Origin: a virus
IMG/VR virus record: IMGVR_UViG_3300042922_000346
Location: 650-64,649 of that record
Direction: 5' to 3' (one strand)
DNA: 64,000 nt
Shown here: piece by piece, positions 24,518 to 63,907 of the stretch
Numbering within the stretch: the stretch's first letter is position 1
Layout of the letters: each line of letters begins with the position of its first letter
Notes under the pieces: model-generated
Told to the model about the DNA's origin: nothing
Database searches by the model: none
What the model saw: only the letters and a program-made list of their open reading frames with translations
Position numbers and translations under genes: made by a program

Positions 24518-24531
24518 AGGAGAAAGGTATT

Positions 24532-25518: not shown

Positions 25519-25601
25519 TCTTTATAAAACTAAGGTTTTAATAACATTTTATAAAACAAACAAGGTAGATAATTGGAGTAAATAAGAGATATACGGAGCA
25601 T

Positions 25602-25646
25602 GAGAGAGGTCACTTTATTAAATTAAAGTGTACTCTCTCTTTTTAT
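25602..25646 (+). terminator. rho-independent terminator after lysin gene
   Basis: GAGAGAG..CACTTTA-ttaaat-TAAAGTG..CTCTCTC two-part stem followed by TTTTT. Confidence 0.6.
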
Positions 25647-25655
25647 GTTGAAAGG

Positions 25656-26615
25656 ATGGTTAAAATGCCAGAAAGAAGTAAAAGAATTGAAACTTATGAT
25701 AAAAATAAGCTTTCTTTAATAAATGCACAAACATTACAAGATTATAGAAGATATAAGATAGATATGGAGATTAGAGAATTATCCCCAAAAACAGTTTATA
25801 ATTATGAATTAGATTTGTTCCAATGGTTTACTTATATTTATGAGAATCAAGGTAATATTTGTGTTAGAGAAATAATTGAAGATGATATTGTTGAGTTCTT
25901 ACATTTTTGTAAAACACAAGGTAATAATAGTAGAAGAATGAAAAGAAGAATGTCCTCTATTAGTGCTTTTTATAAATTCTTGAGAAAGAAAAAACTAGTT
26001 AAAGAAAATCCTATGGAAATGATTGATAGACCAAGAAAAGATACAGATATAGTTGAGCAAACTTACCTATCTCAAGAACAAGTAGCTTTAATGAGAGATA
26101 AATTAATTGAAAATAAAGATACTCAATTAGAACTTTACGCAAATTTATCCTTAAGTACTATGGCAAGAGTAAATGCAATTTCAAATATAAGATGGGAACA
26201 AATTGACTTTGATAAACGTAAAATTGATAAGGTATTAGAAAAAGAACAAAGATACGTTACTTTAAGATTTAATGAAAAATGTAAAGATTTATTTTTACAA
26301 TTAAGAGAAGAAAGAAGGAAAAACAATATTATAACTGAATATGTATTTAGTAGCTTTTATGGTGGACAATATAATAAAGTTAGTAATGTTACGTTAAATG
26401 ATTGGTGTAAAAAGATTGGAGAAATGATTGGAGTAGAATCTTTACATCCTCATGATTTCCGTCATACTTCTGCTACTTTATTAAAAAATTCTGGTATGCC
26501 TTTAGAAAGTATTAGTAAATTATTAAATCATATGGGTACGGATGTAACTTTAAAATTTTATATAAAAGAAGATGAAGAAAAGATACAACAAGAAAAAGAT
26601 AAATATGATTTTTAA
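25656..26615 (+). CDS. int: tyrosine site-specific recombinase (phage integrase / Xer-like)
   Basis: N-terminal SAM-like core-binding region; catalytic box HPHDFRHTSATLL (HxxR) and C-terminal LKFY tyrosine region; RBS AAAGGATGG. Confidence 0.8.
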   Translation: MVKMPERSKRIETYDKNKLSLINAQTLQDYRRYKIDMEIRELSPKTVYNYELDLFQWFTYIYENQGNICVREIIEDDIVEFLHFCKTQGNNSRRMKRRMSSISAFYKFLRKKKLVKENPMEMIDRPRKDTDIVEQTYLSQEQVALMRDKLIENKDTQLELYANLSLSTMARVNAISNIRWEQIDFDKRKIDKVLEKEQRYVTLRFNEKCKDLFLQLREERRKNNIITEYVFSSFYGGQYNKVSNVTLNDWCKKIGEMIGVESLHPHDFRHTSATLLKNSGMPLESISKLLNHMGTDVTLKFYIKEDEEKIQQEKDKYDF

Positions 26616-30456: not shown

Positions 30457-31026
30457 TCAATCCTTTAGTAAAATTTTAAGTAAGTCGTATAATTCTAACC
30501 AATTAGTTACTCTGTAACCATCCCAATCTTTATTCCAACTATAATTACCATAACATATTTTTATTTTTGAAGGATTAGTAACTAAGCATTCTATCTTATC
30601 GTCTATAATAACATCACCAATTACAGAACTCTTATCAAATTTAAAAGGTTGATTTTTATAAATTGGTAATACAGTTACTTTATCCACATGTGGCATGTTT
30701 TGATAAATCCATGCTTTTTTTATTATAACACCCTCTATTCTGTGCAAAGTTAATCCTTCAATAATATGCCCATCAAATTTAAGCAATCGTATAACTTCAT
30801 TAACATTAGGAAATAATTCTAAATATTGGAAAAGTTTAGGATTTGCAAATACATTATCTATATCTTCTGGTGTCCATAAAGGACATACTTTACCCATGTT
30901 CCATTCTAATGTTTCATCATTTAATTCAGTTGAATAATCATTTGTTTGTTCACGATACAGTTTTAATACTGCATCGTGAGTTGGAACACAAGTTGAATCA
31001 AAATCTATTAAGATGTGTTTCCTCAT
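30457..31026 (-). CDS. HAD-superfamily 5'(3')-deoxyribonucleotidase-like hydrolase
   Basis: N-terminal HAD motif I ILIDFDST (DxDxT); size and layout like NT5C/YorS-type nucleotidases. Confidence 0.5.
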   Translation of the reverse strand: MRKHILIDFDSTCVPTHDAVLKLYREQTNDYSTELNDETLEWNMGKVCPLWTPEDIDNVFANPKLFQYLELFPNVNEVIRLLKFDGHIIEGLTLHRIEGVIIKKAWIYQNMPHVDKVTVLPIYKNQPFKFDKSSVIGDVIIDDKIECLVTNPSKIKICYGNYSWNKDWDGYRVTNWLELYDLLKILLKD

Positions 31027-31043
31027 AATATCACCCCATATTA

Positions 31044-31721
31044 TTAAATTATTTTTGTTATTATTTCATCTATTAATCCGTATTCTAATGCTTCTTCTGC
31101 TGTCATCCACCATTCTTTAGTGTAGTTTTTATTCATTAGTTTTTTTGAAATAGTAGTGTGATTTACAATATATTTTTTAACTAATTTTTCTCTTTTTATA
31201 ACAAATGGAAAGTAATCTATAAATTTACCTATAGAATTTTGATTGCCTGTAGTTCCATCATGTATAAGAAAAGTACTATTAGGATAACACGCTTTATAAT
31301 GACATGCCATTGGTAATAATGCCCCCATAGAATAAGCATGAGATATTACTATGCCGTATACTGGTGTTTTACTTGCTTTAATAATATCTATTAAGGCAAA
31401 TCCATATCTATCATCTCCTCCATCACAAGCAATATATAGTTTAATAGGTATTCTTTCTTCTTCTGGAAGTTCTCTTTCATCATCTTCTTGATTCATTTTT
31501 ATAATCGGTAGGATATATTTATTAGCTGTACTTTCATCAAGTACCCCAACTATTTTAATTTCTCTTCTTGCATAATCAACACAAGAATCTGTTTGAACAG
31601 TATCTTCTCCATCACTTAATGCAATTAATAATTCTGCTAATTCTTCATCTGTCATGTCATCAAGTTTATTAACCTTCTGTAATTTTGATTTTAATATATT
31701 AATTTTATTTATATTTTTCAT
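31044..31721 (-). CDS. ClpP-like serine protease (S14 family)
   Basis: PIKLYIACDGGDDRYGFALIDIIKASKTPVYGIVISHAYSMGALL (active-site Ser region), FLIHDG (His), C-terminal MTAEEALEYGLIDEII all in ClpP order. Confidence 0.7.
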   Translation of the reverse strand: MKNINKINILKSKLQKVNKLDDMTDEELAELLIALSDGEDTVQTDSCVDYARREIKIVGVLDESTANKYILPIIKMNQEDDERELPEEERIPIKLYIACDGGDDRYGFALIDIIKASKTPVYGIVISHAYSMGALLPMACHYKACYPNSTFLIHDGTTGNQNSIGKFIDYFPFVIKREKLVKKYIVNHTTISKKLMNKNYTKEWWMTAEEALEYGLIDEIITKII

Positions 31722-31737
31722 AAAATCAACTCCTTAG

Positions 31738-32484
31738 TTATTTATTTGAAGAACCTAGTTTACCTGTACCTCTTTTAGATGGAATAGCCATTATCTCTTC
31801 TACTGTCTTTTCTACAACGTCCACATCTGGAACTTCCTCTAATGATGCTTGACAAATAGCTTTAGCATAAGGATAATAAGTTGTGGAATCAGTAACAATC
31901 ACTTTATCAACTGATTTACTAATTATAATAGGTTTTGTACCTCCATTACTTAACGCTACAAACCATTCTCCTCTATATCCAGAGTCAATTTTTCCTGCTC
32001 GGATTTCCATTAAATTAGTACCAGTTGAACCTCTTTCGCCTAATGATACTTTATATTTAGGGTCAAACGCAGATATTATTCCAGTAGGAATCATAACACA
32101 GGTTTGTGGTTGAATGATAAAACCATCTTCTTCAAAACATGCATATACGTCATACCAACCATTTTCATAATCCTTTGAAGGTATTTTAGCATCTTGTTTT
32201 AATTTAGCAAAATATATTTCATCTTTTTTATTTTTAATGAATCCTTCTTCCCCAATAACGATAGTTGTATTATCAATTATTTTTGCTTTTGATAAAGTAT
32301 TAGTTGTTGGTTTAATGTCTGGAGTTAATGGTATTCCAACCCCTTCTTTTGTTTCAATAAAAACACCTTTTGCAAAATTAACAATTTTTTCTACTATATA
32401 AGTTTCATTAGTTTTTATATTTATCACCTCGTCCCCTTTTTCAAAAAAGGTTTTAGTACGATTGTTATAAATAGTTTTTTTCAT
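31738..32484 (-). CDS. dut: dUTP diphosphatase with ~110-aa N-terminal extension
   Basis: dUTPase motifs IPTGI, SLGERGS, RAGKIDSGYRGE, and C-terminal RGTGKLGSS in C-terminal 140 aa; N-terminal 110 aa unassigned. Confidence 0.75.
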   Translation of the reverse strand: MKKTIYNNRTKTFFEKGDEVINIKTNETYIVEKIVNFAKGVFIETKEGVGIPLTPDIKPTTNTLSKAKIIDNTTIVIGEEGFIKNKKDEIYFAKLKQDAKIPSKDYENGWYDVYACFEEDGFIIQPQTCVMIPTGIISAFDPKYKVSLGERGSTGTNLMEIRAGKIDSGYRGEWFVALSNGGTKPIIISKSVDKVIVTDSTTYYPYAKAICQASLEEVPDVDVVEKTVEEIMAIPSKRGTGKLGSSNK

Positions 32485-32485
32485 A

Positions 32486-32653
32486 TTATCTCCTCCCTTT
32501 CTTTGAGTCTTTAACTATTGTATATCCTGCCAGTTTAGCTTTTAATATAGTAATTCCCTGTTCACCTAAAATCTCTTCTATTGTAAAAGTACCATATTTA
32601 CCCTCTTCCCATTTAAGAACATTACCTTTTAATTCGTTTTTGAATATTGTCAT
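32486..32653 (-). CDS. small hypothetical protein (55 aa), first gene after promoter P2; below ORF-track cut-off
   Basis: Strong RBS AAAAGGAGAGGA 6 nt before ATG (reverse complement of 32651-32653); stop overlaps dut RBS. Confidence 0.45.
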   Translation of the reverse strand: MTIFKNELKGNVLKWEEGKYGTFTIEEILGEQGITILKAKLAGYTIVKDSKKGRR

Positions 32654-32674
32654 AAATATCCTCTCCTTTTGTTA

Positions 32675-32703
32675 ATATAGTTATATTATACCACTTTAAT
32701 TTC
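32675..32703 (-). promoter_or_regulatory. consensus sigma-A promoter P2 (TTGACA-17-TATAAT, TGg extended -10)
   Basis: Reverse complement TTGACAaaaagaaattaaagtggTATAAT. Confidence 0.65.
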
Positions 32704-32771
32704 TTTTTGTCAACATATTTTGACAAAATATAAGGAATTTCTTCCTTATGTACAAGGGGAAACCCCTTGAA

Positions 32772-33068
32772 TTATAAATTTGATTTTTCTTTCCATTTAT
32801 CCATTTTCTTTGTTAAAGTTTCAATTAATTCAGTAGGGTTTCCATCTAATTTGTAGAATAAGGATAATGCTACCAATATTACATCAATACATTCTTCTTT
32901 AATATCTTGAGATGTTAATTGTTTATATTCACAACCATTTGCTTTTAACCAAGATAATAAAGCTTGAAAACATTCTCCTGTTTCTTCTCCTAATTTTAAA
33001 GCCATTTGTTCTAATGATTTTGATTCTGTTTTACTTAATTCATGAATTTGTTCTAGTATATTATTCAA
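32772..33068 (-). CDS. MazG-like nucleotide pyrophosphohydrolase (small all-alpha NTP-PPase)
   Basis: KLGEETGECFQAL ... EECIDVILVAL paired E-x-x-E / E-x-x-D helices typical of MazG domain. Confidence 0.5.
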   Translation of the reverse strand: MNNILEQIHELSKTESKSLEQMALKLGEETGECFQALLSWLKANGCEYKQLTSQDIKEECIDVILVALSLFYKLDGNPTELIETLTKKMDKWKEKSNL

Positions 33069-33091
33069 ATAATCACTCTCCCATCCAAGAT

Positions 33092-33358
33092 TTATAGACT
33101 ATATTCTAGTTTTTCATAACTATCCGCATAATCAAATCCTATTATTTTTATACCATTAAATGTTTTTAAAGTTAAATCTTCATTATATGCCTTTTTATAA
33201 TAAGCAAGTTTCGATTTAAAATTGTCTCTTTGATTTATTATTATTTCTGGTTGTTCAAATCCCTCCATTTGTATTTTTACACCGATATACCTTGCTCCAT
33301 TATTATATGCTTTTTCAATACAGTTTTCTAATTCAGTTAATGATAATTCACTGTTCAT
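33092..33358 (-). CDS. hypothetical protein (88 aa)
   Basis: ORF in operon. Confidence 0.45.
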   Translation of the reverse strand: MNSELSLTELENCIEKAYNNGARYIGVKIQMEGFEQPEIIINQRDNFKSKLAYYKKAYNEDLTLKTFNGIKIIGFDYADSYEKLEYSL

Positions 33359-33371
33359 ATAAATCCTCTCC

Positions 33372-33893
33372 TTAATATCTTAATATTTTAGTTCCTTTAA
33401 TTAAGCTGTCTTTAACATTTATAACATTTTGATTTTTACTACCTCTAAATTTTAATGTAATGTCTCTTTGAGTTATATCAAATCTACCATCAACTAAAAC
33501 ATCACATAATTCTAATAATCTTAATTTATTACTATCTTCTAATATTTCCTCGTAAGTAAATCCAGAATAAATCCAAATATTTTTTGTTGGACATGCGTGA
33601 TGAAACATTTGTAAAAATAAAAAACAGTCATTGGCAGAGAAAAAGGGGTCACCACCGCTCAGAGTAATGCCTTGAATTAAAGGGTTTGTTTCAACATATT
33701 TTATAAGGTCTAATTGCATTTCATAATCAAAAGGTTTACCATATTGAAAGTTGTGAGTGAGGGGATTATGACACCCCTCACAAGCATGTAAACAACCACT
33801 AATAAATACTGTTGTTCTTACGCCCTCACCATCAACTAAACTTTCATAATTTATTCCACTAACATACATCTTTAATAATCCTTCTTGGTTCAT
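33372..33893 (-). CDS. nrdG: anaerobic ribonucleotide reductase activating protein (radical SAM)
   Basis: CLHACEGCHNP CxxxCxxC cluster; overlaps nrdD 3' end by 35 nt. Confidence 0.85.
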   Translation of the reverse strand: MNQEGLLKMYVSGINYESLVDGEGVRTTVFISGCLHACEGCHNPLTHNFQYGKPFDYEMQLDLIKYVETNPLIQGITLSGGDPFFSANDCFLFLQMFHHACPTKNIWIYSGFTYEEILEDSNKLRLLELCDVLVDGRFDITQRDITLKFRGSKNQNVINVKDSLIKGTKILRY

Positions 33894-36147
33894 TTAAAAT
33901 GGTTATTCCTTCTGCTGTGAAATTAGTATATTTACTATGCTTTACTCTATCTAGTGTTTCTGCAATTTTACCTTTATTAAAATTTCTATAATCTGTTGTT
34001 AAATAACCTGTAACCCTTCTAAGTTGTTGAATATTTTTACTACCACAAACTGGACATGCATCATTGAACTCACCTTGATAACCACAATCTAAACAACTAT
34101 CAATCGGAAAATTAAATGCTAAATATGGAATATCTAAATCCATAGCATAATCTATAATTGCTTCTATTGCTTCTTCATTATTAATTATTGAGTTTTCTAA
34201 TTCGATATAAGTTATACATCCTCCTGTTGGATATTTGCAGAATGGTGCTTCTATTTTTAATTTATCAAAAATAGATACTTCTTGCCATACTGGAACATGA
34301 TGTGAATTAGTTAAATATTCTCTATCGGTAACATTTGGAATAATACCGTATTCCTCTTTAAGTTTTTCCATCATGGTTTTACATAAATTCTCCGCAGGAG
34401 TAGCATATGCACTAAAGTTTAAATTGTATTTGTCACTTGCTATCTTAGCATAATCATGAATATATTTAACTACTGATAATGCAAAAGCGTGAACTTTTTC
34501 ATCTTCCGCATGATTGTTTCCAAACAATGCTTCACACATTTCAGCAATACCAATATATCCTATTGCGTTAGTATTGTGTTTCATTGCTTCATAAACACTT
34601 TTATCAATAACTTTATCATATCCCATCATTGTTCCATTTTTATACATGAAAGGTGCTGATTTGGGAGATTGACTACAAATATGATAAAATCTATCAATTA
34701 ATCCTATTACAGCTAACTCTAATACTTCATCTAGTTCTTTCCAAAAGGCTTCTAAATTATTTTTATCATGAAGAATACCCAACTTAGGAAGATTAATTGT
34801 TATTGGAGATACATTTCCTCTGCCAACTTTAACATATGAATTACTAAATCTATCGTATCCTAACATTGTTCTACATCCCATAGTTGCCATGAAAGTATCT
34901 GGATTATTAGGGTCTTCTATATTCATTGACCAATCTCCATTTGCCCAATTAGGATAAATTCTTTTTGTCATGGATTTTATAGCTAATTTTTTAATAGTAT
35001 AATTTGGTGTATTGGGTTTATCATTTATCCCTTTTTTATATTGGAAAATTGAAATAGGGAATATTGAAGTTAAATTATACTTACCAATTCCATCTATACT
35101 AGCTTTAAATATCCATTCATTAATCCATCTTCCTTCTGGACTAGTATCTCTACCTAGGTTAATTGATGTGAATGGAAGTTGAGAACCGGGACGACTCTCA
35201 AGGGTATTAAGGTTATGATATAATGCTTGAGCAGATTGTAATCCTTCTTTATTAGTCATATCGTAAGCATATTCCCAAACAGCAGGATTTAACTCTTTAT
35301 ATCTTTTATCCTCAACTTTTATTTTATATTTACCATATTGCTCAGTGATTTCTTCGTCTGTAAGTCTTGCAATATATTTTAATCCAACCTTATAATGTTT
35401 GGTAAAAGATTTAATAACATGTGGTGCTAAATCAAAATCCAAATGAACAGACCCAACTCCACCAAACTGTACTTGACTCTGACATTGAAAAATAACAGCC
35501 ACAAGTTGCATTGCAGTACTTATTGAATTTGCTCCTCGAACATCTCCATTCCTAGTTACAAACCCATTATTTAATGTTTGTGGTAAATCGCAAAATAAAC
35601 AATTATGCATTCCTACATCATAAGAATCTAAGTCATGAATATATATTCTATTTTGTTTGTGTGCTTGGGAAACAGAAGGTCTTATTAAGTTATTTAAAGC
35701 AAAATCTTTATGAAGAACTCCTGCACTTTCAAACTTTCTTCCTCCAAAAGAATATTCATCTACATTAGCATTAGAATTTTGAATATTTTTACAAAGTAAA
35801 ATATCAGATATTTTTTTATTAATTTCACTATTTTTATGCCTATCTATAGTTCGTTGGGTTCTATATTTAATATATTCTCTGGCAACATCTTTATATTGAC
35901 TTGCCATTAACTTGTTCTCAACAATTGTTTGGACATATTCTATATCTACTATTTCTTGTTGCATTTTTTCAATACCTTCTGCAATTTGATTAGCGTAATT
36001 ATAGTCTACCTCTTTAATTTTTATATCTGGATGACCTTCTTTCCCAAGTTTAATAGTATAAATCATAGCTGATATAATTGCATCTACAATCTTTTGTTTA
36101 TTAAATGGTTTTAGTCTTCCGTCACGTTTCACAATTTGTCTTATCAT
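33859..36147 (-). CDS. nrdD: anaerobic ribonucleoside-triphosphate reductase
   Basis: N-terminal ATP-cone; C-terminal Zn ribbon CLDCGYQG...CPVCGS and glycyl-radical motif RVTGYL. Confidence 0.9.
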   Translation of the reverse strand: MIRQIVKRDGRLKPFNKQKIVDAIISAMIYTIKLGKEGHPDIKIKEVDYNYANQIAEGIEKMQQEIVDIEYVQTIVENKLMASQYKDVAREYIKYRTQRTIDRHKNSEINKKISDILLCKNIQNSNANVDEYSFGGRKFESAGVLHKDFALNNLIRPSVSQAHKQNRIYIHDLDSYDVGMHNCLFCDLPQTLNNGFVTRNGDVRGANSISTAMQLVAVIFQCQSQVQFGGVGSVHLDFDLAPHVIKSFTKHYKVGLKYIARLTDEEITEQYGKYKIKVEDKRYKELNPAVWEYAYDMTNKEGLQSAQALYHNLNTLESRPGSQLPFTSINLGRDTSPEGRWINEWIFKASIDGIGKYNLTSIFPISIFQYKKGINDKPNTPNYTIKKLAIKSMTKRIYPNWANGDWSMNIEDPNNPDTFMATMGCRTMLGYDRFSNSYVKVGRGNVSPITINLPKLGILHDKNNLEAFWKELDEVLELAVIGLIDRFYHICSQSPKSAPFMYKNGTMMGYDKVIDKSVYEAMKHNTNAIGYIGIAEMCEALFGNNHAEDEKVHAFALSVVKYIHDYAKIASDKYNLNFSAYATPAENLCKTMMEKLKEEYGIIPNVTDREYLTNSHHVPVWQEVSIFDKLKIEAPFCKYPTGGCITYIELENSIINNEEAIEAIIDYAMDLDIPYLAFNFPIDSCLDCGYQGEFNDACPVCGSKNIQQLRRVTGYLTTDYRNFNKGKIAETLDRVKHSKYTNFTAEGITILNEPRRIIKDVC

Positions 36148-36227
36148 TATAATTCCTCCTAATGTTTTTATATTTTTAAATTAATATGGTGGTGCATGTG
36201 TATATAACATTAATACTTCACCTCCTT

Positions 36228-36785
36228 TTATTTAATAATATATCCACTAATAGCTTGTCTTCCCATTTTTAATGTTCTTTTTTTATAATTATACGTTGAT
36301 TCATTTGATAATCTAGGAACAAATCTATCTAGTCTATTATTTTTATTAAAATCATTACCACCTCTATCTGAAACAGTTACAATTCCAATCCCTTCTAAAT
36401 AGATTTTTGTTCCTAATGGATAAAAATTACTTGCCACCATACCATCAACTAATTTTTTACCTTCACATGTTCCAACATGTCCACCATTTTCTTCTGGTAA
36501 ATCAGTATAGTGAGTAACTGTAAAATCAACAACTTGGATTGTTGGTGGCATACCACCTCTACTAAAAGATTGTTGATTTGTAGGCATAGTTATTGTTTTT
36601 ACATCTGCTCTATTTATTTCTTTACTTGGTAAAGTTGCTGTAAGTGGCAAAATTACTTCTTCTATTTTAATATTATTATTTTCTTGTTTAGGGACATCAA
36701 CACTATTACTTGTTTCACTATGATAAGATAAAAGTAATGATACAACAATTAACGATACCATAGCTGTTTTATTTGTTTGTTTCAA
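36228..36785 (-). CDS. secreted 3D-domain protein (MltA/YuiC-like cell-wall lytic domain)
   Basis: N-terminal signal/TM VSLIVVSLLLSY; C-terminal VASNFYPLGTKIYLEGIGIVTVSDRGG...NRLDRF matches 3D-domain conserved Asp pattern. Confidence 0.55.
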   Translation of the reverse strand: MKQTNKTAMVSLIVVSLLLSYHSETSNSVDVPKQENNNIKIEEVILPLTATLPSKEINRADVKTITMPTNQQSFSRGGMPPTIQVVDFTVTHYTDLPEENGGHVGTCEGKKLVDGMVASNFYPLGTKIYLEGIGIVTVSDRGGNDFNKNNRLDRFVPRLSNESTYNYKKRTLKMGRQAISGYIIK

Positions 36786-36801
36786 AAGTATCCCTCCTTA
36801 A

Positions 36802-37515
36802 TTACGAATTAAGTATCTTTACTATAACATCTTCCTTATTACTTAATTCTTTAATTTGTAGTTGTTCTAAATCTGATTTCTTTGGTTGTCTTCCACAACA
36901 AAACTTTTCAGTACAAAATCCTACCATATCACATTTTGGTTTACATTGTGATACTATCCATTTCCATTCATCATCTAATTCACTTAAAATATTAAGTAAT
37001 TCAATAACAAGTTTTCTTATTTCATGATATGCCCTAGTACATAATCGCATTTCTGCTAAATGAATTAATGCTCTAACATTAATTTTTAAAACTACTCTAC
37101 TAATCATTGCTAAAGGTAAAACATTAGCAACATCTTCTTTTGGTATATCTAATTCTTGAAGTTTCTGATAACCTTCTTTTATGGTATCCATAATTTTAGT
37201 GTATTCTTCTGTACCCATTTTATTTTTTATTGATGGGGGAGTGAAATAATCAAATTCCCCATATTTTATATATCTTGTCGATGCTTGTAAACGAGATGTC
37301 CCTATAATGTGTGTATATAATTCTCTTATTGTTCTAGCACTATATCCATCAATTACCACAGTTACGTCTGCAAATTCACTCACCCTACCATGACCAGATT
37401 CTATAATTTCTTTAGCAACTTTGACTAAATCTTTTGGATTACTGCCCCAACATTCTTTTGCACAAGTTGCCATAACAGTTAATGGATTGTGTGTGTAATT
37501 TAGCACTTTTATCAT
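36802..37515 (-). CDS. thyX: flavin-dependent thymidylate synthase ThyX-like
   Basis: N-terminus KVLNYTHNPLTVMATCAKECWGS and GHGRVSEFADVTVVIDGYSARTIRELYTH..STRY..FxxPPS resemble ThyX conserved blocks; the canonical RHR triplet is not obvious by eye. Confidence 0.65.
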   Translation of the reverse strand: MIKVLNYTHNPLTVMATCAKECWGSNPKDLVKVAKEIIESGHGRVSEFADVTVVIDGYSARTIRELYTHIIGTSRLQASTRYIKYGEFDYFTPPSIKNKMGTEEYTKIMDTIKEGYQKLQELDIPKEDVANVLPLAMISRVVLKINVRALIHLAEMRLCTRAYHEIRKLVIELLNILSELDDEWKWIVSQCKPKCDMVGFCTEKFCCGRQPKKSDLEQLQIKELSNKEDVIVKILNS

Positions 37516-37527
37516 GTCTATTCCTCC

Positions 37528-38109
37528 CTAAATACTCTTATTTTTTATATTCCTTAATATAATATCGACCGTATCATTTGTGTTTATATTATTTATTTTT
37601 AAAATAGCTAACTTTTCAGCTTCTTTAAATGTTTCTTTATCGGATAAAAATCTTCTGCATATTTCATTGCATTGCTCCTCTGTTGCATGAGGTTGTCTAT
37701 CTATTGACCGCTTTAATAATTCCCAAGGGTCAGATACATATAAATAGATTCCAATTACATTTTCTTTACCTAACTTATCTCTTATTTGTTTAAATCCTTC
37801 TGTTTCTGTAACTAAAACATAATCTCCTTTTGATAAATCTATTGATGAATATGGAGTTGCATATTTCCAATTATTATAAGGAACGACTTCCATAAATTCT
37901 CCATTTTCATTTCGTTTATCAAACTCTTCATCTGTTAGAAAATAATAATCTATACCCTCTACTTCATTTTCTCTTTTAGGTCTGGTTGTACAACTAACTC
38001 CTTGTAACATATGCTTTCCTAGCATTTTTTGAACAGTGGTTTTACCAACAGCAGAACGTCCATATAAAATATGAAGTTTTCCTTGATTCACTTGATTCAC
38101 TTGATTCAT
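37528..38109 (-). CDS. gmk: guanylate kinase
   Basis: P-loop GRSAVGKTTV; CTTRPKRENEVEGIDYYF guanylate-kinase signature; N-terminus carries NQV x3 tandem repeat. Confidence 0.8.
   Translation of the reverse strand: MNQVNQVNQGKLHILYGRSAVGKTTVQKMLGKHMLQGVSCTTRPKRENEVEGIDYYFLTDEEFDKRNENGEFMEVVPYNNWKYATPYSSIDLSKGDYVLVTETEGFKQIRDKLGKENVIGIYLYVSDPWELLKRSIDRQPHATEEQCNEICRRFLSDKETFKEAEKLAILKINNINTNDTVDIILRNIKNKSI
38080..38109 (-). repeat. three in-frame tandem copies of 9-bp unit (CTTGATTCA on plus strand) at 5' end of gmk
   Basis: ccttgattcacttgattcacttgattcat read directly. Confidence 0.8.
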
Positions 38110-56677: not shown

Positions 56678-57271
56678 TTAACTTATAGGAGTATTAAAAT
56701 CAATTTCTATATTCTTCCTTGATGCTAAATAATCTGATAATGCTACAATAGCATCTAATTTCGTCTTTGGTAAAGGTAATACAACATTACTATACTTATT
56801 AGTATTCCATTGACTCATATGACAATTTATACATTGGAATAATATATCGGATGTACCCATACAAGTATTTTCTAAAGCATCCATTACTTTTGTATTTTTA
56901 CTTAACAATTCGGTAATTATTAATGGATGTTCATGTACTGTGAAATTACTTTGCTCTATACCAGATTTTGCTCCATCATGTAATATTCCTGCTACTATGA
57001 AAATATCTCTTTCATTATCTGTAAAATCAAATAATGTTTTAAATTGTATCATATTTAATCCTATTCTCACAAGTGCCTTAGAATGTCTTACAAGTCCACC
57101 ATCTCCCAAGCAATAACTAGGGTGATATTTACCTGTGCTAGATGCAGGAATAGTGAAAAAATAATCTGGAACAACTTCTGCTAAAGCTACCATTACAGCA
57201 ATTTTCATATTTGGATTTTTTATTGCATTTATTTCATCATGAAACAATTCTATTTTTTCTTTTGGTGTCAT
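56678..57271 (-). CDS. HD-domain phosphohydrolase
   Basis: H...HD...D pattern: KYHPSY...AGILHDGAKSG...H. Confidence 0.55.
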   Translation of the reverse strand: MTPKEKIELFHDEINAIKNPNMKIAVMVALAEVVPDYFFTIPASSTGKYHPSYCLGDGGLVRHSKALVRIGLNMIQFKTLFDFTDNERDIFIVAGILHDGAKSGIEQSNFTVHEHPLIITELLSKNTKVMDALENTCMGTSDILFQCINCHMSQWNTNKYSNVVLPLPKTKLDAIVALSDYLASRKNIEIDFNTPIS

Positions 57272-57272
57272 A

Positions 57273-57836
57273 TTACTTCACCAACTTTGCTAAATATTTT
57301 TCTCTTTTATTAAGTGCTTTAAGCCGTTCGTCTATCTTAGCATCAAATTCTTTTATTTCCTTATTGATGTTATAATAATCTCTTTTTATTTCAGCTTTCG
57401 CTTTTGCTATTTTAAGTCCAGTAACTTCATTATATTCATCTTCTGGTAAACATTTTGCAACACCTTTGAATATTTTATTCCCTTCTTTAACAATATATAT
57501 AATAGCAGGATAACTATAAATTATTTTACCATTTGGTAATGGTATAACCCTATCTTCTTTTGCATTGAAGATATTCCATGTATTTTCTTTTTTAGTTTCT
57601 ACAAATTCAAGCATATCACTTGACCAACTATATGACCCATTATCTATATCTAATAAATATCTAACATTTTCATAATCTAAAGAGTTATTCATATAATCTA
57701 CAATTTTAACTTTAGCTTCTTTACCTTTAAATTCTTTCATTTTAAAAACAAATCCACATCCGTTATATAATTCAGAAGTAACTAAATCTTCTTTTATTTT
57801 TACTCTATCTCCAATTATAAATAATTTCTTTCCCAT
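57273..57836 (-). CDS. hypothetical protein (187 aa)
   Basis: ORF 1 nt after next gene stop. Confidence 0.5.
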   Translation of the reverse strand: MGKKLFIIGDRVKIKEDLVTSELYNGCGFVFKMKEFKGKEAKVKIVDYMNNSLDYENVRYLLDIDNGSYSWSSDMLEFVETKKENTWNIFNAKEDRVIPLPNGKIIYSYPAIIYIVKEGNKIFKGVAKCLPEDEYNEVTGLKIAKAKAEIKRDYYNINKEIKEFDAKIDERLKALNKREKYLAKLVK

Positions 57837-57837
57837 A

Positions 57838-58368
57838 TTATCGCGCTCCTTCGTTTTTATTATTTGATAAAAGTTCTATAATAATATATTGTATAGCTAT
57901 TAAAGTTTTTGTATCTTTAATGCTTATTTGTAATAATTGATTGATATCAAACCATTCTACTGATTCAACATCAGAATCTTCTACTATTGTACTAACTCCT
58001 ATTCCATCATATTCAACAACAAATATTGAACTCGTAGCATCACTACTACCACAAATCATATAATATTCTCTAACCAGTTGTGGAACAGATAATTTATCTT
58101 TTGGTAAATTACATTCCTCTTGAAGTTCTTCAATAAGAATATCTTCTGGAGATTTGTCTTTATCAATGCATCCAGCAGGAAGTTCGTATAAATATTGCTC
58201 AACACAAGGTCTATACTGTTTAACTAAAGCTACTTTCCCCACATTATCTATTACAATTGCAGAAACAGCACTCTTTATGTGTAGCTTTTCTCTTGTGACA
58301 GGGTTTCCTTTAATTAAGCTGTCAATTTTTTCAACTTTATGCCAACCATTATAAACTATTTCACTCAT
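57838..58368 (-). CDS. Nudix hydrolase, ADP-ribose pyrophosphatase-like with degenerate Nudix box
   Basis: YELPAGCIDKDKSPEDILIEELQEECNL aligns to lElPAGkid.gEsp.eaAiRELkEEtGl with R-to-E and G-to-N substitutions. Confidence 0.45.
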   Translation of the reverse strand: MSEIVYNGWHKVEKIDSLIKGNPVTREKLHIKSAVSAIVIDNVGKVALVKQYRPCVEQYLYELPAGCIDKDKSPEDILIEELQEECNLPKDKLSVPQLVREYYMICGSSDATSSIFVVEYDGIGVSTIVEDSDVESVEWFDINQLLQISIKDTKTLIAIQYIIIELLSNNKNEGAR

Positions 58369-58375
58369 TAAATTA

Positions 58376-58654
58376 TCACCTTACCCTTATAATATCATTA
58401 TTTTGGTTTATTATTTCTGATATATTATTTGATGATACAATAATTGGTATAGGTAATATTTTTTTATAATTTTCATAACTATCTGTAGAAACTACCATAA
58501 CATAAAGTCCATTTTCATCAACCATACCTACTTTACCTAAATTACCATATGATGTATATTTATTATCTTTTGTTGTAAAACTAATAACATCTCCAACGTT
58601 TATATCATATTCTTTTATTGTTGGTATATTTACATTAACTTTAATTTTACCCAT
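58376..58654 (-). CDS. hypothetical protein (92 aa)
   Basis: ORF; ATGA overlap with upstream gene. Confidence 0.45.
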   Translation of the reverse strand: MGKIKVNVNIPTIKEYDINVGDVISFTTKDNKYTSYGNLGKVGMVDENGLYVMVVSTDSYENYKKILPIPIIVSSNNISEIINQNNDIIRVR

Positions 58655-58842
58655 TAATATTCCTCCTTACAATAATCCTTCAATTCATTTTTAATCTTTT
58701 GCTTATTCTTCTCTTTATTTTCTTCTTCTTCATGAAACCCTGTTTTAAACTCTGGTTTATATACTTTACCTTCTCTATTTAATAATAAATCTTTACCACT
58801 TATAACCATAGTACTCTTCTCTTTTTTCTTAGATTTACCCAT
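58654..58842 (-). CDS. hypothetical Lys/Glu-rich protein (62 aa)
   Basis: ORF. Confidence 0.4.
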   Translation of the reverse strand: MGKSKKKEKSTMVISGKDLLLNREGKVYKPEFKTGFHEEEENKEKNKQKIKNELKDYCKEEY

Positions 58843-59481
58843 TTATACCTCCGTTAAAACATCCTTACTTTCATAAACATCATGAAGTTTATAATAAATT
58901 AGATTAGGGTCTTTTTTAAAATGATTTATATTATCGTGAGATTGTGCAGGAGATATTCCTAACATAATCTCACGTAGCATAGAGTAATGTTTGTGTGTTT
59001 TTGAATGAGCATATTTATGCCATTCCTCCTTATTGTCTTGAATTAACCAGTTTCTCATTTGTGTTGCTGATACTGGGGTTAATGCTCTTGGAACAACTAT
59101 TCTTAAAGTTGTCCTCATTTCATCATCTGTAAACCAACCATTTACCTTTTCATCTCCAAACATACATACATCTGGCTGTTTACCCATATATTGATTAACT
59201 GTATTTAATAAGTATTGAGTCCAATTTGAACTCATATCATGTTTATCAATTAAATCGCTTATTGGTTTAACAATAACTCTATCTCCATAAATTTCCTCAA
59301 TTAACTTTATTCTTAATTTAATATCGTATGGATTTTCATAAGTGCCGTACTCTTGACTACTTCCAACTAAAACTAATATTCTATCACATATCTGCAAACC
59401 AGTATCAATAACACTACAATGTCCTATGTGAATATGTTGAAATCTTCCGATATATAATCCTAAATCTGGGTTAGTTAACAT
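58843..59481 (-). CDS. nicotinamide/nicotinate mononucleotide adenylyltransferase (NadM/NatV-type NMNAT)
   Basis: N-terminal nucleotidyltransferase signature LGLYIGRFQHIHIGH ((H/T)xGH motif). Confidence 0.65.
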   Translation of the reverse strand: MLTNPDLGLYIGRFQHIHIGHCSVIDTGLQICDRILVLVGSSQEYGTYENPYDIKLRIKLIEEIYGDRVIVKPISDLIDKHDMSSNWTQYLLNTVNQYMGKQPDVCMFGDEKVNGWFTDDEMRTTLRIVVPRALTPVSATQMRNWLIQDNKEEWHKYAHSKTHKHYSMLREIMLGISPAQSHDNINHFKKDPNLIYYKLHDVYESKDVLTEV

Positions 59482-59485
59482 AACA

Positions 59486-59695
59486 TCATCTCCTTATCAA
59501 TATAACTAGTATTATTAAAAATCCTATAAATAATCCAAATTTTATAATAAGTATTTTTAATAATTCATCTTCAATAGCTTTTTTAATTACTTTAGTATCT
59601 TTTTTCTTTTTTAATTGTCTTGGAAAATGTAAATTTTTAGGTACTTTGATTGACACGCTTTGTTTTTGAGTAAATCCAGTTTTGCCCATCGTCAA
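59486..59695 (-). CDS. small protein with C-terminal TM helix (69 aa)
   Basis: LKILIIKFGLFIGFLIILVILI. Confidence 0.4.
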   Translation of the reverse strand: MTMGKTGFTQKQSVSIKVPKNLHFPRQLKKKKDTKVIKKAIEDELLKILIIKFGLFIGFLIILVILIRR

Positions 59696-59705
59696 CTTCC
59701 TCCTT

Positions 59706-59734
59706 ATTGTAACACTTTAATTTATGTTTGTCAA
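59706..59734 (-). promoter_or_regulatory. near-consensus sigma-A promoter P6 (TTGACA-17-TACAAT, TGt extended -10); -35 overlaps upstream hairpin
   Basis: Reverse complement TTGACAaacataaattaaagtgtTACAAT; hairpin CAAGGGGATTAACCCCTTG at 59731-59749. Confidence 0.6.
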
Positions 59735-59753
59735 GGGGATTAACCCCTTGAAT

Positions 59754-61154
59754 TTATTTTATATCATATTTCTCATGAAACGAATTAATTAAAGCTTGTG
59801 TTTCTTTTGATAATAATATTTTTTCTTGTGTTGTTTTTTGAGCATATGCCCTGCTCCTTACTTCATCAAAATGTCTAGAATTAACTGTTGCGATATATGC
59901 TTCATTACCAGATGGAATATATTCATATATTACTTCATATAAGCCTTCTCCGTCCCCATCTTGAACAACCATGTCGCCATTATTATAAGTTAAATGAACT
60001 ATATTTGGAATAGATTGTTTTATTGGTTCAGTTGGCACAAGTTTCATTCTTGGTTGACCATTTGAAAAGGCTGTTTTCATTGCCCATCCCAAAGTGTCTC
60101 TTTCAAGATTCTTATAAAATCCTGCTCCAATTCCATAATTTACAAAATTAATTGGCACATCATAATCTAACAATTTAGAATCAAATTTCTTAGCTTCTTC
60201 AAAAGACATTCCTTCACCAACAATTACCGCACAGCTATTTAATAAATCATTTTCTTTAGCAATTTTATATATTGCTACTGTTTGGTCAAATATATCTCCA
60301 CTATCTGGTCGCCAAACAACTTTTACACCTTTTGATTTAGCATATTCAGTTAATGGAGTTACCCATTTATTAATTACATTCCATGCATTATAGGTATCTA
60401 TAACCATTGCTACAATACCTTCTCCTACTTCTTTTGTTGCATCTATAGTATGAATAAAACATTCATATTCATCATCAAATTGTTGAGTTACTTTGTGTGC
60501 TAAAGCAGAGATTGAACCCATAACGCCATTTGGCATGTGTTGAAAAACATGAAAATCATCTGTGCCTTGTAAGAACAATGACCAAGCTGTTCCTGCAAAA
60601 TAAGAATCTTCTAAACTTTTATGACCTCTAAATCCAAAACTATGAAACTTCCATAGAAATCCATCATCATAACCAAATTGATTTTGTCTTTCAACTAAAT
60701 ATTTTTTCATATTAAATGCTTCTGTAGCACATGCACTTGGAAACCAACCATGCATAAGAATTGCTTCTAACCATGTAACCATTTCTCCAAAACCCTTTAC
60801 TGTGTTTCTTATTTGAGCAAATGGTGTATTGATTGGACAATAAGTCCCTTCTGGTAACATTTCAATCTTTATTGGGATTCTACCATTACACTCCGTAACG
60901 ACTCTCTTCCACAATTCCTTTGGAAAACTTAATCCTCTTTGTTCAGCTAATTTATCAGCTTTATTTACCATACTCATAGTAATTTTCTTAGAAAGAATAC
61001 TATTTACAATTTCCTTTAGTCCATATAATATCATTGGGTTTGCTCTATTATACATATGAGAAACCTCAAAATCTGTATTTACTTTTAATCTTTCATGGGA
61101 AAGATTATAAACATCTGTTAGCATTATTGGGTTCTTTCTTATATCTCCTAACAT
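59754..61154 (-). CDS. nadV: nicotinamide phosphoribosyltransferase (NadV/NAMPT)
   Basis: 466 aa; blocks GFRGHKS, DSGD, GIGAGFYKNLERDTLGWAMK characteristic of NAMPT family. Confidence 0.75.
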   Translation of the reverse strand: MLGDIRKNPIMLTDVYNLSHERLKVNTDFEVSHMYNRANPMILYGLKEIVNSILSKKITMSMVNKADKLAEQRGLSFPKELWKRVVTECNGRIPIKIEMLPEGTYCPINTPFAQIRNTVKGFGEMVTWLEAILMHGWFPSACATEAFNMKKYLVERQNQFGYDDGFLWKFHSFGFRGHKSLEDSYFAGTAWSLFLQGTDDFHVFQHMPNGVMGSISALAHKVTQQFDDEYECFIHTIDATKEVGEGIVAMVIDTYNAWNVINKWVTPLTEYAKSKGVKVVWRPDSGDIFDQTVAIYKIAKENDLLNSCAVIVGEGMSFEEAKKFDSKLLDYDVPINFVNYGIGAGFYKNLERDTLGWAMKTAFSNGQPRMKLVPTEPIKQSIPNIVHLTYNNGDMVVQDGDGEGLYEVIYEYIPSGNEAYIATVNSRHFDEVRSRAYAQKTTQEKILLSKETQALINSFHEKYDIK

Positions 61155-61452: not shown

Positions 61453-62214
61453 CTAATATCTATTCTTTCTTTTTATTATTCTATAAATAACATATATAAT
61501 AATTATTAAAACAATCAAACTAATTATGTCCCATAAAACTGACCTAACTCCTCCGTATACTGGAGCATATCCTCCACTAGTATATCCATCTGCATAAATT
61601 GGTCTATTATCATTTGTTACTGCTCTATAAAACCAATAATGTGACCAAAAATTATTCCAACTACTACCACTATTATCATAATAACCATTGGTATTATATC
61701 CTGCGTTGTATCCACTAGAATTATTTGAACTTTGAGTTGACGTAGTATTTCCAGAAGTTAAACCAGACGAACTAGGTTTAACCGATATAGCTGAACCACC
61801 TGTTACTGTTGTTCCAGAAGAACTTGGCTTAACTGTAGTTGAAGTTGAACTGCTCGGTTTAGTAGTTGTACTTGTACTGGGTTTAGTGGTTGTACTACTA
61901 CTTGGAGCAATAGTTGTGGAAGTAGAAGGTTTCGTAGTAGTTGATGTGCTAGGTTTTACAGTTGTAGACGTTGAAGGTTTTGTCGTGGTTGTAGACGTAC
62001 TTGGCTTAATGGTCGTAGTTGATGTTGAAGGTTTAACTGTACTAGTACTTGTACTAGGTTTTGATACACTAGTTGATGTACTAGGTCTACTAACTGAACT
62101 GGTACTTGGTCTACTTACACTCGTTGATGATTTTGCAAATCCAATTTCACCTGTAAACATAATTAACATTATGGTCGTTATAATTGATACTAAAATCTTA
62201 TTACCTTTTTTCAT
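61453..62214 (-). CDS. Ser/Thr/Pro-rich mucin-like type I membrane protein with tandem KPSTSTTT repeats
   Basis: Signal peptide, ~130 aa of (V)KPSTSTTT repeats, Gly/Tyr/Asn-rich segment, C-terminal TM LIVLIIIIYVIY and basic tail. Confidence 0.6.
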   Translation of the reverse strand: MKKGNKILVSIITTIMLIMFTGEIGFAKSSTSVSRPSTSSVSRPSTSTSVSKPSTSTSTVKPSTSTTTIKPSTSTTTTKPSTSTTVKPSTSTTTKPSTSTTIAPSSSTTTKPSTSTTTKPSSSTSTTVKPSSSGTTVTGGSAISVKPSSSGLTSGNTTSTQSSNNSSGYNAGYNTNGYYDNSGSSWNNFWSHYWFYRAVTNDNRPIYADGYTSGGYAPVYGGVRSVLWDIISLIVLIIIIYVIYRIIKRKNRY

Positions 62215-62806: not shown

Positions 62807-63907
62807 CTAAATATTATAAATTAATTTTTTGTTTGTTGCCCATCTAGCAATAAATTCTTGTTCTACTTTTGTAGTTGGTCTATTATATTTCCCTTTAGTT
62901 TGTTTAATCTCACCATTCCTTACTTCTATCGTTACTAGACTATCTTCTGGCATAGTTTTATATCTCATAAAATAAATTTTACATTTACTTGATATAATAT
63001 CATCAACATAAGAAGCTACACAATGACTGAGATTAGTGCCTTCTGCTACAACATCTTTAACTGATTTTGGATTTATAATGGTATAATTTTCATAAGTATA
63101 TAATAACTTAAGATACTCCTCTTTGTCAACTATATTTTGCAATTTTTGTTCTTTTATTTTATCTTTGTTTGTATTGTAATTCATCAAGGTTATATCATGC
63201 ATCTTTTTTAATGATTCTGGATATTTGGTATATTCATGTTTCAAGTCTATACTCATACGAATATAATCACGTAATAAGATACTAGCATCCGAAGGTGAAG
63301 AAATACCTTGTTGAAGTTTAACTTCTCTTGTTAAATAAGTACAAAGGTTTATAATGTTATTATATTTATATTCGGTATATAATTCAATTAAAGTATCACA
63401 ACAATTAAATAAACTAGCTATACGAGCTTCTTCATTAAATATTTTAATGATTATTTTAAATTTATTGATATCGAAAATTTTAGATAAATTATTGAGTTTA
63501 ATTATATTATAATTGTCTATTTTAAAACCGTTATTTAATAATACCCCTAAAGAAAATTTAGATATTCCTATCATATCATTAACTTTTGTTGCTCCCTTTG
63601 AAATATTCCTAATTATACTATCAGACATATTCCATATATCAGATAATTGAGTATAATTCATGCCATACATTCCAAATACTTGTATAAATGAATATTTATA
63701 CATTAATCTATACAATGCTCTTAACCTTTTCGTAGATAACTCATAATTCATTCTTCCTAATCTATAAAATGCAGTTTCATAAACAGCTTTATTTTTTTCA
63801 GTTGCTATTGCATTAAGAAGTATTTTCTCTGGAATATTTTGAAGTAAATTATTAAGAAGATTATTTCTTTTATTTGTATCATAAGATATTTCAATGTTAT
63901 TTTTCAT
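62807..63907 (-). CDS. hypothetical protein (366 aa)
   Basis: Long ORF, no motif recognised. Confidence 0.5.
   Translation of the reverse strand: MKNNIEISYDTNKRNNLLNNLLQNIPEKILLNAIATEKNKAVYETAFYRLGRMNYELSTKRLRALYRLMYKYSFIQVFGMYGMNYTQLSDIWNMSDSIIRNISKGATKVNDMIGISKFSLGVLLNNGFKIDNYNIIKLNNLSKIFDINKFKIIIKIFNEEARIASLFNCCDTLIELYTEYKYNNIINLCTYLTREVKLQQGISSPSDASILLRDYIRMSIDLKHEYTKYPESLKKMHDITLMNYNTNKDKIKEQKLQNIVDKEEYLKLLYTYENYTIINPKSVKDVVAEGTNLSHCVASYVDDIISSKCKIYFMRYKTMPEDSLVTIEVRNGEIKQTKGKYNRPTTKVEQEFIARWATNKKLIYNI

Follow-up and report, generated by a model that had tools for sequence, protein, structure and literature searches.

A probable NARP2-type NAD+ salvage module in split-gene form on a c-st/SPbeta-like phage contig

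Bacteria commonly deplete nicotinamide adenine dinucleotide (NAD+) as a strategy against phages, and NARP1, NARP2 and NARP3 are known phage countermeasures. To our knowledge, all experimental work on NARP2 was done with a single phage of a Gram-negative host, KVP40, in which a nicotinamide mononucleotide (NMN) adenylyltransferase (NMNAT) is fused to a Nudix hydrolase; the NadV/NatV system of this Vibrio phage is also attributed to Lee et al. (2017). The present analysis concerns a viral sequence of 64,000 nucleotides (nt), positions 650 to 64,649 of IMG/VR record IMGVR_UViG_3300042922_000346, which is called the window here in its whole length and in which positions are counted from the first letter. 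Three of its genes encode proteins of 466, 212 and 176 amino acids (aa), predicted to be a nicotinamide phosphoribosyltransferase (NAMPT, or NadV), a NadM-type NMNAT and a Nudix hydrolase of the ADP-ribose (ADPR) pyrophosphatase (ADPRase) family, and all three lie on the minus strand exactly where an earlier note on this DNA had placed three co-oriented genes of a nicotinamide-to-NAD+ route (Table 1). Family assignments from four independent libraries, together with conserved linkage in related loci, suggest that these genes probably form a NARP2-type module for salvage of nicotinamide to NAD+, inserted as an accessory in a phage resembling c-st and SPbeta. As NAD+ salvage the set is well supported, and it would be a known kind of system, NARP2, in split-gene form, in which the NAMPT is of a divergent clade and the Nudix has been exchanged for another.

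The Nampt and Nmnat of KVP40 were shown experimentally to raise NAD+ and to counter Thoeris and DSR2 (Osterman et al., 2024). According to the literature, phage NadM consists of an adenylyltransferase with a Nudix domain attached to it, and its co-occurrence with NadR has been noted. No description of the split Firmicute-type arrangement was found in the literature searched. The likeness to KVP40 NadV/NatV and NARP2 drawn in the earlier note is apt, since the three predicted activities are those of KVP40, an NMNAT accompanies the NAMPT, and no Adps was found in the 64 kb. There are, however, differences: NMNAT and Nudix are separate genes in the window, whereas the KVP40 type has one NatV of 340–370 aa; the window NAMPT, ∼25% identical to the KVP40 type, falls in a deep clade of its own and has deletions that follow the GTD and RPDSGD motifs; the Nudix is of another lineage and has a remodelled box; and the host is likely a Firmicute rather than a Gram-negative bacterium. 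With NARP3 (PnuC and NadR; phage Bas30/TrudiRoth) the locus would share NAD+ as the end product of NMN adenylylation, and one locus with a relative of the window NAMPT (L021) combines NAMPT with PnuC and NadR. The window NMNAT, in contrast, is without a ribosylnicotinamide kinase domain, and no NadR or PnuC was found in the window, either by phmmer with the PnuC-like protein of locus L001 or in those open reading frames (ORFs) that were scanned against Pfam and PHROGs.

Assignment of the 466-aa protein to the NAMPT (NadV) family, with an intact predicted catalytic core, is supported by profile and solved-structure searches. Profile searches, which the earlier note had suggested, returned Pfam NAPRTase (4e-13) and NAMPT_N (4e-7) and the NAMPT family phrog_448 (1e-63), and all 32 matches among solved structures were NAMPTs, the best being that of Xanthomonas (7yqo, 3e-28), with the SPbetaL1 Namat, deposited as NAMPT (2.5e-26), and mammalian enzymes (∼1e-24) among the others. 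Neither a non-NAMPT family for this protein nor an unrelated cytidylyltransferase for the 212-aa protein came out of the profile and structure searches. In comparison with validated references the core residues Y16, F173, R176, D199, H220 (the phospho-His), R282, D284, R352, D353 and K360 are kept, with one conservative change, D to E at position 314. D199 corresponds to D219 of human NAMPT, the residue conferring nicotinamide specificity.

Within this family the window protein is only 21–28% identical to validated Nampt and validated Namat alike, and no more than 30% identical to any of 1754 phage homologues. In a neighbor-joining tree of 11 sequences, in which nt-1 stands in for KVP40 Nampt, the window NAMPT and its metagenomic relatives branch deeply as a third group, apart from the Nmnat-associated clade and from the Adps-associated one. 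This clade comprises 330 clusters at E ≤ 1e-20, with identities of 49% or more throughout the 120 clusters listed. Bacillus, Paenibacillus and Brevibacillus assemblies contribute proteins to it, some of them chromosomal and standing alone (B. methanolicus) and others on phage-like "plasmids" of ∼137 kb. No member of the clade was found at >30% identity in 50,697 GenBank phage records (INPHARED, August 2025). The nearest homologues in cultured phages, those of BcepSauron and phiRSL1, are labeled "Nmnat-associated" in Table S2 of Osterman et al. (2024).

The 212-aa protein is most readily read as a monofunctional NadM-type NMNAT, as previously claimed. It matches Pfam CTP_transf_like (1e-9), its best NCBIfam matches are the NadM-Nudix and archaeal NMNAT models, and all 12 of its matches in a PDB sequence search are NMNATs. 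Both signature motifs are present, GxFxxxHxGH as GRFQHIHIGH and the C-terminal SxTxxR in VSATQMR, and they align with those of NatV, MJ0541 and Synechocystis NadM. The gene starts 272 nt downstream of the NAMPT gene, and its product ends where the NadM domain ends in the bifunctional NatV proteins of 340–370 aa (BcepSauron, phiRSL1, Synechococcus phage B23), in agreement with the claim that NMNAT and Nudix are separate genes here. Among cellular systems of NadV and NadM (Francisella, the Synechocystis NadM-Nudix, and the archaeal monofunctional NMNAT MJ0541), the likeness lies in the archaeal/NadM type of the NMNAT, and a monofunctional NMNAT is the archaeal arrangement; the window genes differ in being phage-borne and clustered, whereas chromosomal NAMPTs of the clade (B. 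methanolicus) stand alone.

The 176-aa protein matches Pfam NUDIX (1e-10), and 17 of its 18 matches in the PDB are named ADPR or ADP-sugar pyrophosphatases (best 9jax, 2e-11), the remaining one being a Thermus thermophilus protein deposited only as "MutT/nudix family protein" (2yvm). A profile of its clade matches PDB entries over the full length at 2e-34, and the 50 top Foldseek matches of its AlphaFold2 model (pLDDT 87) are exclusively ADP-ribose or NDP-sugar pyrophosphatases, so that the family claim made earlier for this gene is upheld by sequence and by fold. The closest characterized proteins, in full-length sequence and fold, are NudF-type ADPRases of Firmicutes (B. methanolicus Nudix/Act 8wv3, 9jax and 8zr8) and that of Mycobacterium tuberculosis (1mk1), with which the window protein shares the QYR, ExPAG, EE and IxDxKT elements; it differs from them in having K for the GX5E Glu, E for the R of REUXEE, N for the final G and A for the loop Glu. 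It is a host-type clostridial Nudix, and its predicted substrate is most likely ADPR, the substrate being the least certain point of the assignment.

The Nudix box of the window reads GCIDKD-K-SPEDILI-EELQEECNL (G-x5-K-x7-E-E-L-Q-E-E-C-N-L) and so departs from the canonical GX5EX7REUXEEXGU at three signature positions (E to K, R to E, G to N), with the EUxEE glutamates E81, E84 and E85 kept. The loop after the PG(F)(S/T)(D/N)E motif is CGSSDA, with Ala in the column of a Glu that we take to be the catalytic base in the E. coli and M. tuberculosis ADPRases, and with the preceding Asp kept. An exhaustive search was made, and columns were tallied with hmmalign over the 45 closest representatives clustered at 50% identity. 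The canonical R position is E in 37 of these 45, the GX5E glutamate column is L or K in 36, and E81, E84 and E85 are each present in 43–44; the loop column holds A, S or T in 40 of the 45, against E in 43 of 51 canonical representatives. Lower-ranked matches grade into canonical boxes. The R-to-E and G-to-N changes for which the earlier note called the box degenerate are correct, and the GX5E change to K is added to them; the variant is conserved throughout the clade and in this alignment is a remodeling, not decay. K72 and E80 could be a charge-swapped version of the canonical Glu-Arg pair. C55 (in QYRPC) and C86 (in EEC) are invariant among the ten closest homologues, where canonical ADPRases have A/P and T, and among the 45 representatives C86 is kept in 30 and C55 in 12; flanking the catalytic helix, they could be a redox or metal feature. 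An NrtR-like sensor of ADPR, in which a degenerate Nudix domain would be joined to a C-terminal winged-helix DNA-binding domain, or a decayed pseudo-enzyme was rejected on the grounds of the variant being conserved over ∼40 clusters (50% identity), the retained catalytic Glu and the lack of a helix-turn-helix domain: at 176 aa the protein is a single Nudix domain that ends, in the model, in one long helix, and Pfam and NCBIfam found no such domain in the ORF. Pattern scans of viral contigs for the Nudix gave no match. The closest phage-borne variant Nudix (55% identity; L006:8001-12236) lies beside an RNA ligase, an HNH endonuclease and a KTI12/AAA_33 kinase-like gene, a neighborhood that is RNA-repair-like and not NAD-like.

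Gene linkage was examined in nine independent contexts with the window NAMPT clade, all on phage or phage-like (137-kb plasmid) DNA. The order in the window is NAMPT, NMNAT, two small ORFs and Nudix; loci of the L004 type and loci L025, L030 (Bacillus wiedmannii) and L032 (Paenibacillus peoriae) have NAMPT, NMNAT and Nudix, L022 and L026 have NAMPT and NMNAT, L021 has NAMPT, PnuC, NadR and Nudix, and L001, of which only an 8-kb flank was covered, has NAMPT with a PnuC-like gene 5.6 kb downstream (L001:15049-15738). A separate NMNAT of ∼190–230 aa thus stands beside the NAMPT in seven of the nine contexts, with NadR and/or a PnuC-like transporter in the other two, and an enzyme for the step from NMN to NAD+ partners the NAMPT in eight of nine. 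This conserved partner is the strongest argument that the NAMPT clade makes NMN. The Nudix genes of the clusters belong to three unrelated lineages, each distinct from the Nudix of fused NatV, which suggests that Nudix activity has been recruited repeatedly.

Two of these contexts lie on RefSeq "plasmids" of ∼137 kb with NAMPT-NMNAT-Nudix (NZ_CP061173.1, L032; NZ_CP032366.1, L030), where phage-like genes (SPbeta YorH-like, DNA ligase, RuvC) surround the trio, and which look like plasmid prophages. In L021 (IMGVR_UViG_3300025534_000013), the stretch L021:6001-10183 holds NAMPT, a PnuC-like gene, a 116-aa ORF, a NadR-like gene (348 aa) and a canonical ADPRase-type Nudix. This NadR-like protein would combine NMNAT with ribosylnicotinamide kinase, and the operon-like cluster is a hybrid of NARP2 and NARP3.

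Taken as a NARP2-type module, the three proteins would act in succession. The NAMPT would condense nicotinamide with phosphoribosyl pyrophosphate (PRPP) to NMN by way of phospho-His220, the stacking pair Y16/F173 and D199, and the monofunctional NadM-type NMNAT would then adenylylate NMN with ATP to NAD+. The separate Nudix would most likely split ADPR, the other product of NADase defences, into AMP and ribose-5-phosphate, a role suggested by its family membership, and host Prs could turn the ribose-5-phosphate into PRPP to feed the first step. The net effect would be that NAD+ is kept available in infection, including under depletion by Thoeris, DSR or SIR2-type systems, an anti-defence role that we infer from the experiments with KVP40.

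Several findings tell against this reading and are set here beside the alternatives to which they belong. The role of the clade as NAMPT is drawn from sequence at 21–28% identity to validated proteins, and the same distance separates the 466-aa protein from Namat, the NARP1 enzyme (Adps and Namat; SPbetaL1, Bas63) that makes NAD+ directly from ADPR pyrophosphate and nicotinamide, and which is homologous to Nampt, with the same phosphoribosyltransferase fold and an identical catalytic core. The clamp helix of the window protein is also not fully Nampt-like, as it carries the aromatics F346, which is peculiar to the clade, and Y347, which aligns with Y394 of Namat. A Namat is nevertheless most improbable here. 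The published discriminators are an adenine "selectivity clamp", formed by a stacking residue of the β1-β2 loop and by helix residues F392 and Y396, and the Prs-like ADPR pyrophosphokinase Adps; in the window protein the SCL (β1-β2) loop is deleted, and Nampt is followed at the discriminating positions, with G315, G345 (Namat F392), N349 (Namat Y396) and E351 (Namat T398). A hidden Markov model of three Adps proteins and phmmer, run with filters off over six frames of the 64 kb, found no Adps/Prs (best E ∼ 0.1), and none was found in the related loci examined, though one may lie elsewhere in what is probably an incomplete genome (a contig of 64.6 kb). An enzyme from NMN to NAD+ would be superfluous for a Namat, so the adjacent NMNAT in seven contexts and the NadR in an eighth count against it as well, the 8-kb flank of L001 showing only the PnuC-like ORF. 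The absent clamp and the lack of Adps in 64 kb point to a NARP2-type route rather than NARP1, and the Namat/NARP1 candidate was rejected. That the 212-aa protein is some other HIGH-family nucleotidyltransferase, such as a cytidylyltransferase or PPAT, is likewise very unlikely. It draws on the fact that only the generic CTP_transf_like model passes its cut-off, the NMNAT equivalog models scoring 57.8 bits against a cut-off of 397 (NadM-Nudix) and 51.9 against 127 (PRK01153), and the protein is indeed divergent, placed among NMNATs at the level of the family rather than the equivalog. On the other side stand the PDB matches, all to NMNATs, the far weaker PPAT score in NCBIfam (1e-4), the NadM-type GRFQxxHxGH and SATxxR, the alignment over the full NadM domain of NatV, and the conserved position directly after NAMPT across loci.

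More weight attaches to the Nudix, which is possibly, though in our judgment not probably, an enzyme outside NAD+ salvage: a host-derived housecleaning or NDP-sugar/NAD(H) hydrolase, or one acting on another ADPR-related substrate. Its active site is remodeled relative to characterized ADPRases (GX5E Glu to K, R to E, loop Glu to Ala), its match to TIGR00052 (YffH/AdpP, 2.5e-8) is below the NCBIfam cut-off, the family takes in GDP-mannose and ADP-sugar hydrolases as well, and between it and the NMNAT gene lie two unrelated small ORFs. Its clade also occurs without a nearby NAMPT: one member is on the phage-like contig that carries RNA-repair genes, and another is on a Tepidibacter chromosome, where it has a rhodanese gene on one side and spore-germination genes on the other. 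However, five other independent loci have a separate Nudix, of two further lineages, after NAMPT-NMNAT or NadR, Gram-negative phages have a Nudix fused to NMNAT, and such recurrence suggests selection of Nudix activity beside the pair; the best sequence and fold matches, moreover, are ADPR pyrophosphatases. A rather improbable variant is that the remodeled Nudix is a specialized enzyme for an ADPR derivative arising from defence, which would make the module a distinct route of NAD+ reconstitution; it builds on the K72/E80 swap, the lost loop Glu, Cys55/Cys86 and the two clamp-helix aromatics of the NAMPT, and the substrate could then be, for instance, the ADPR-1''-phosphate of aRES-type NADases or a Thoeris signal of the cyclic ADPR type, or else NAD(H) itself. 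As to purpose, NAMPT and NMNAT might be a general metabolic booster supplying NAD+ for phage replication and nucleotide metabolism and not selected for counter-defence, which we consider possible but not probable. NARP2 raises NAD+ even in defence-free cells, NAD+ synthesis genes reportedly occur together with NAD-consuming enzymes in gut jumbo phages, and the module shares the arm for replication and nucleotide metabolism with NrdD/G, ThyX, a kinase and NT5C. Against this, the window ORFs that were scanned yielded neither an NAD-dependent ligase nor any other enzyme that consumes NAD, and an ADPR-type Nudix as recurrent partner is in keeping with recycling of what NADases produce; the biochemistry would be identical, and a booster is therefore compatible with the NARP2 explanation.

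The NAD genes lie in a co-directional block running from ∼62.8 to 56.7 kb (Table 1), which is packed tightly, with intergenic gaps of -1 to 18 nt and a single exception, a 58-nt spacer downstream of NAMPT. The NAMPT, NMNAT and Nudix ORFs are each preceded by a Shine-Dalgarno sequence, and the NAPRTase, NAMPT_N, CTP_transf_like, NUDIX and HD matches in the block all pass the Pfam gathering cut-offs; the ORF lengths and E-values in a sequence of 28% GC rule out chance ORFs. The spacer holds a hairpin that overlaps a promoter-like site, and such sites are not enriched in the region (70 found, 62 expected from shuffles).

Table 1. Predicted features of the NAD gene block, with positions in the window
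Feature	Position	Strand	Basis or remarks
NAMPT/NadV, 466 aa, Firmicute-type clade	59754..61154	-	Pfam, PHROG, PDB, core residues
Hairpin CAAGGGGTTAATCCCCTTG overlapping promoter-like TTGACA-17-TACAAT	59706..59751	-	Spacer between NAMPT and the downstream gene; consensus match only
69-aa ORF, hydrophobic C-terminus	59486..59695	-	Between NAMPT and NMNAT; Shine-Dalgarno sequence; no family match (Pfam, PHROGs); not conserved in related loci
Monofunctional NadM-type NMN adenylyltransferase, 212 aa	58843..59481	-	CTP_transf_like, NCBIfam, PDB, motifs
Two small ORFs, 62 aa and 92 aa	58376..58842	-	Between NMNAT and Nudix; Shine-Dalgarno sequences; abut neighbors; no family matches (Pfam, PHROGs); not conserved in related loci
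Nudix hydrolase, ADP-ribose/NDP-sugar pyrophosphatase family, remodeled box, 176 aa	57838..58368	-	Pfam, PDB, Foldseek
HD-domain protein	56678-57271	-	Pfam HD 5e-5; phrog_5889 2.5e-51

The HD hydrolase that the earlier note included in the operon does have an HD domain and does share the co-directional block, but its functional tie to the NAD set was not borne out. The protein is 45% identical to one of Clostridium phage c-st and ∼42% to the SPO1 gp32.5/32.6 region, and it is conserved in replication modules of Firmicute phages that lack NAD genes, whereas it is absent from every related NAD cluster; a PDB sequence search gave only noise and a pattern scan of viral contigs no match. It was accordingly rejected as a pathway member and is, on these similarities, a general Firmicute-phage gene that is not NAD-specific. 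Between it and the Nudix gene lies a 187-aa ORF (57273-57836, minus strand; phrog_7488) with a small N-terminal "GDxVKV/IT..." domain, which recurs as short stand-alone ORFs near related NAD clusters (L021:10806-11060; L004:5400-6376). Upstream of NAMPT, a 253-aa protein (61453-62214, minus strand) has a signal-peptide-like N-terminus, a long Ser/Thr/Pro/Lys-rich stretch encoded by imperfect 24-nt repeats, and a C-terminal transmembrane segment; over the C-terminal 77 aa it shares 42% identity with a protein of similar kind that precedes the L001 NAMPT on its upstream side (L001:3288-3929). At the upstream end of the block stands a 366-aa PcfJ-like protein (62807-63907, minus strand; Pfam 7e-27; phrog_3169 4e-72).

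Strand and GC skew switch near 26 kb of the window. On the plus-strand arm lie genes for an endolysin, a 1884-aa tape measure protein, tail proteins and, at the switch (24499-26615, plus strand), a 339-aa fusion of papain-family peptidase and SPOR domain together with a 319-aa tyrosine recombinase, the last of which suggests a temperate or plasmid-prophage lifestyle. The minus-strand arm, in which the NAD genes, putatively early ones according to the earlier note, are placed, is one of replication and nucleotide metabolism, with a large DNA polymerase (phrog_405) whose counterpart in c-st bears the annotation DnaE/YorL homologue, primase, helicase, topoisomerase II subunits, a RecD-like helicase and the PcfJ-like protein. 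It also contains a dense block (30457-38109, minus strand) of an NT5C-type 5'-deoxynucleotidase, a ClpP-like protease, a dCTP-deaminase-like protein, NrdG, NrdD, ThyX and a guanylate-kinase-like protein, in which the anaerobic ribonucleotide reductase (NrdD/NrdG) suggests an anaerobic host. Megablast of the region against GenBank phages gave no match at the DNA level, and the nearest cultured relative is Clostridium phage c-st (RecD-like protein 43%, HD protein 45% identical). The 20-kb stretch of c-st with the SPbeta-type YorF-YorL replication module has no NAD gene annotated, which suggests that the NAD genes are an accessory insertion in a c-st/SPbeta-like phage. The carrier is probably a large and temperate phage of this kind with an AT-rich, anaerobic and probably clostridial Firmicute host, and since the window takes up nearly the whole of its source, a JGI contig of 64.6 kb, and relatives are 137–248 kb, its genome is probably incomplete.

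These findings suggest that large Firmicute phages and plasmid-prophages carry a separate and populous clade of NAMPT, which, being missing from the August 2025 release of INPHARED at >30% identity, is unlikely to have been included in surveys based on earlier releases. The clade is paired with stand-alone NMNAT and interchangeable Nudix genes, and sometimes with PnuC and NadR. The split-gene module reveals no new principle, and its value lies in breadth and modularity: it would extend the known distribution and modularity of NAD+ reconstitution in phages, and it flags candidate NAMPT and NMNAT enzymes together with a Nudix subfamily.

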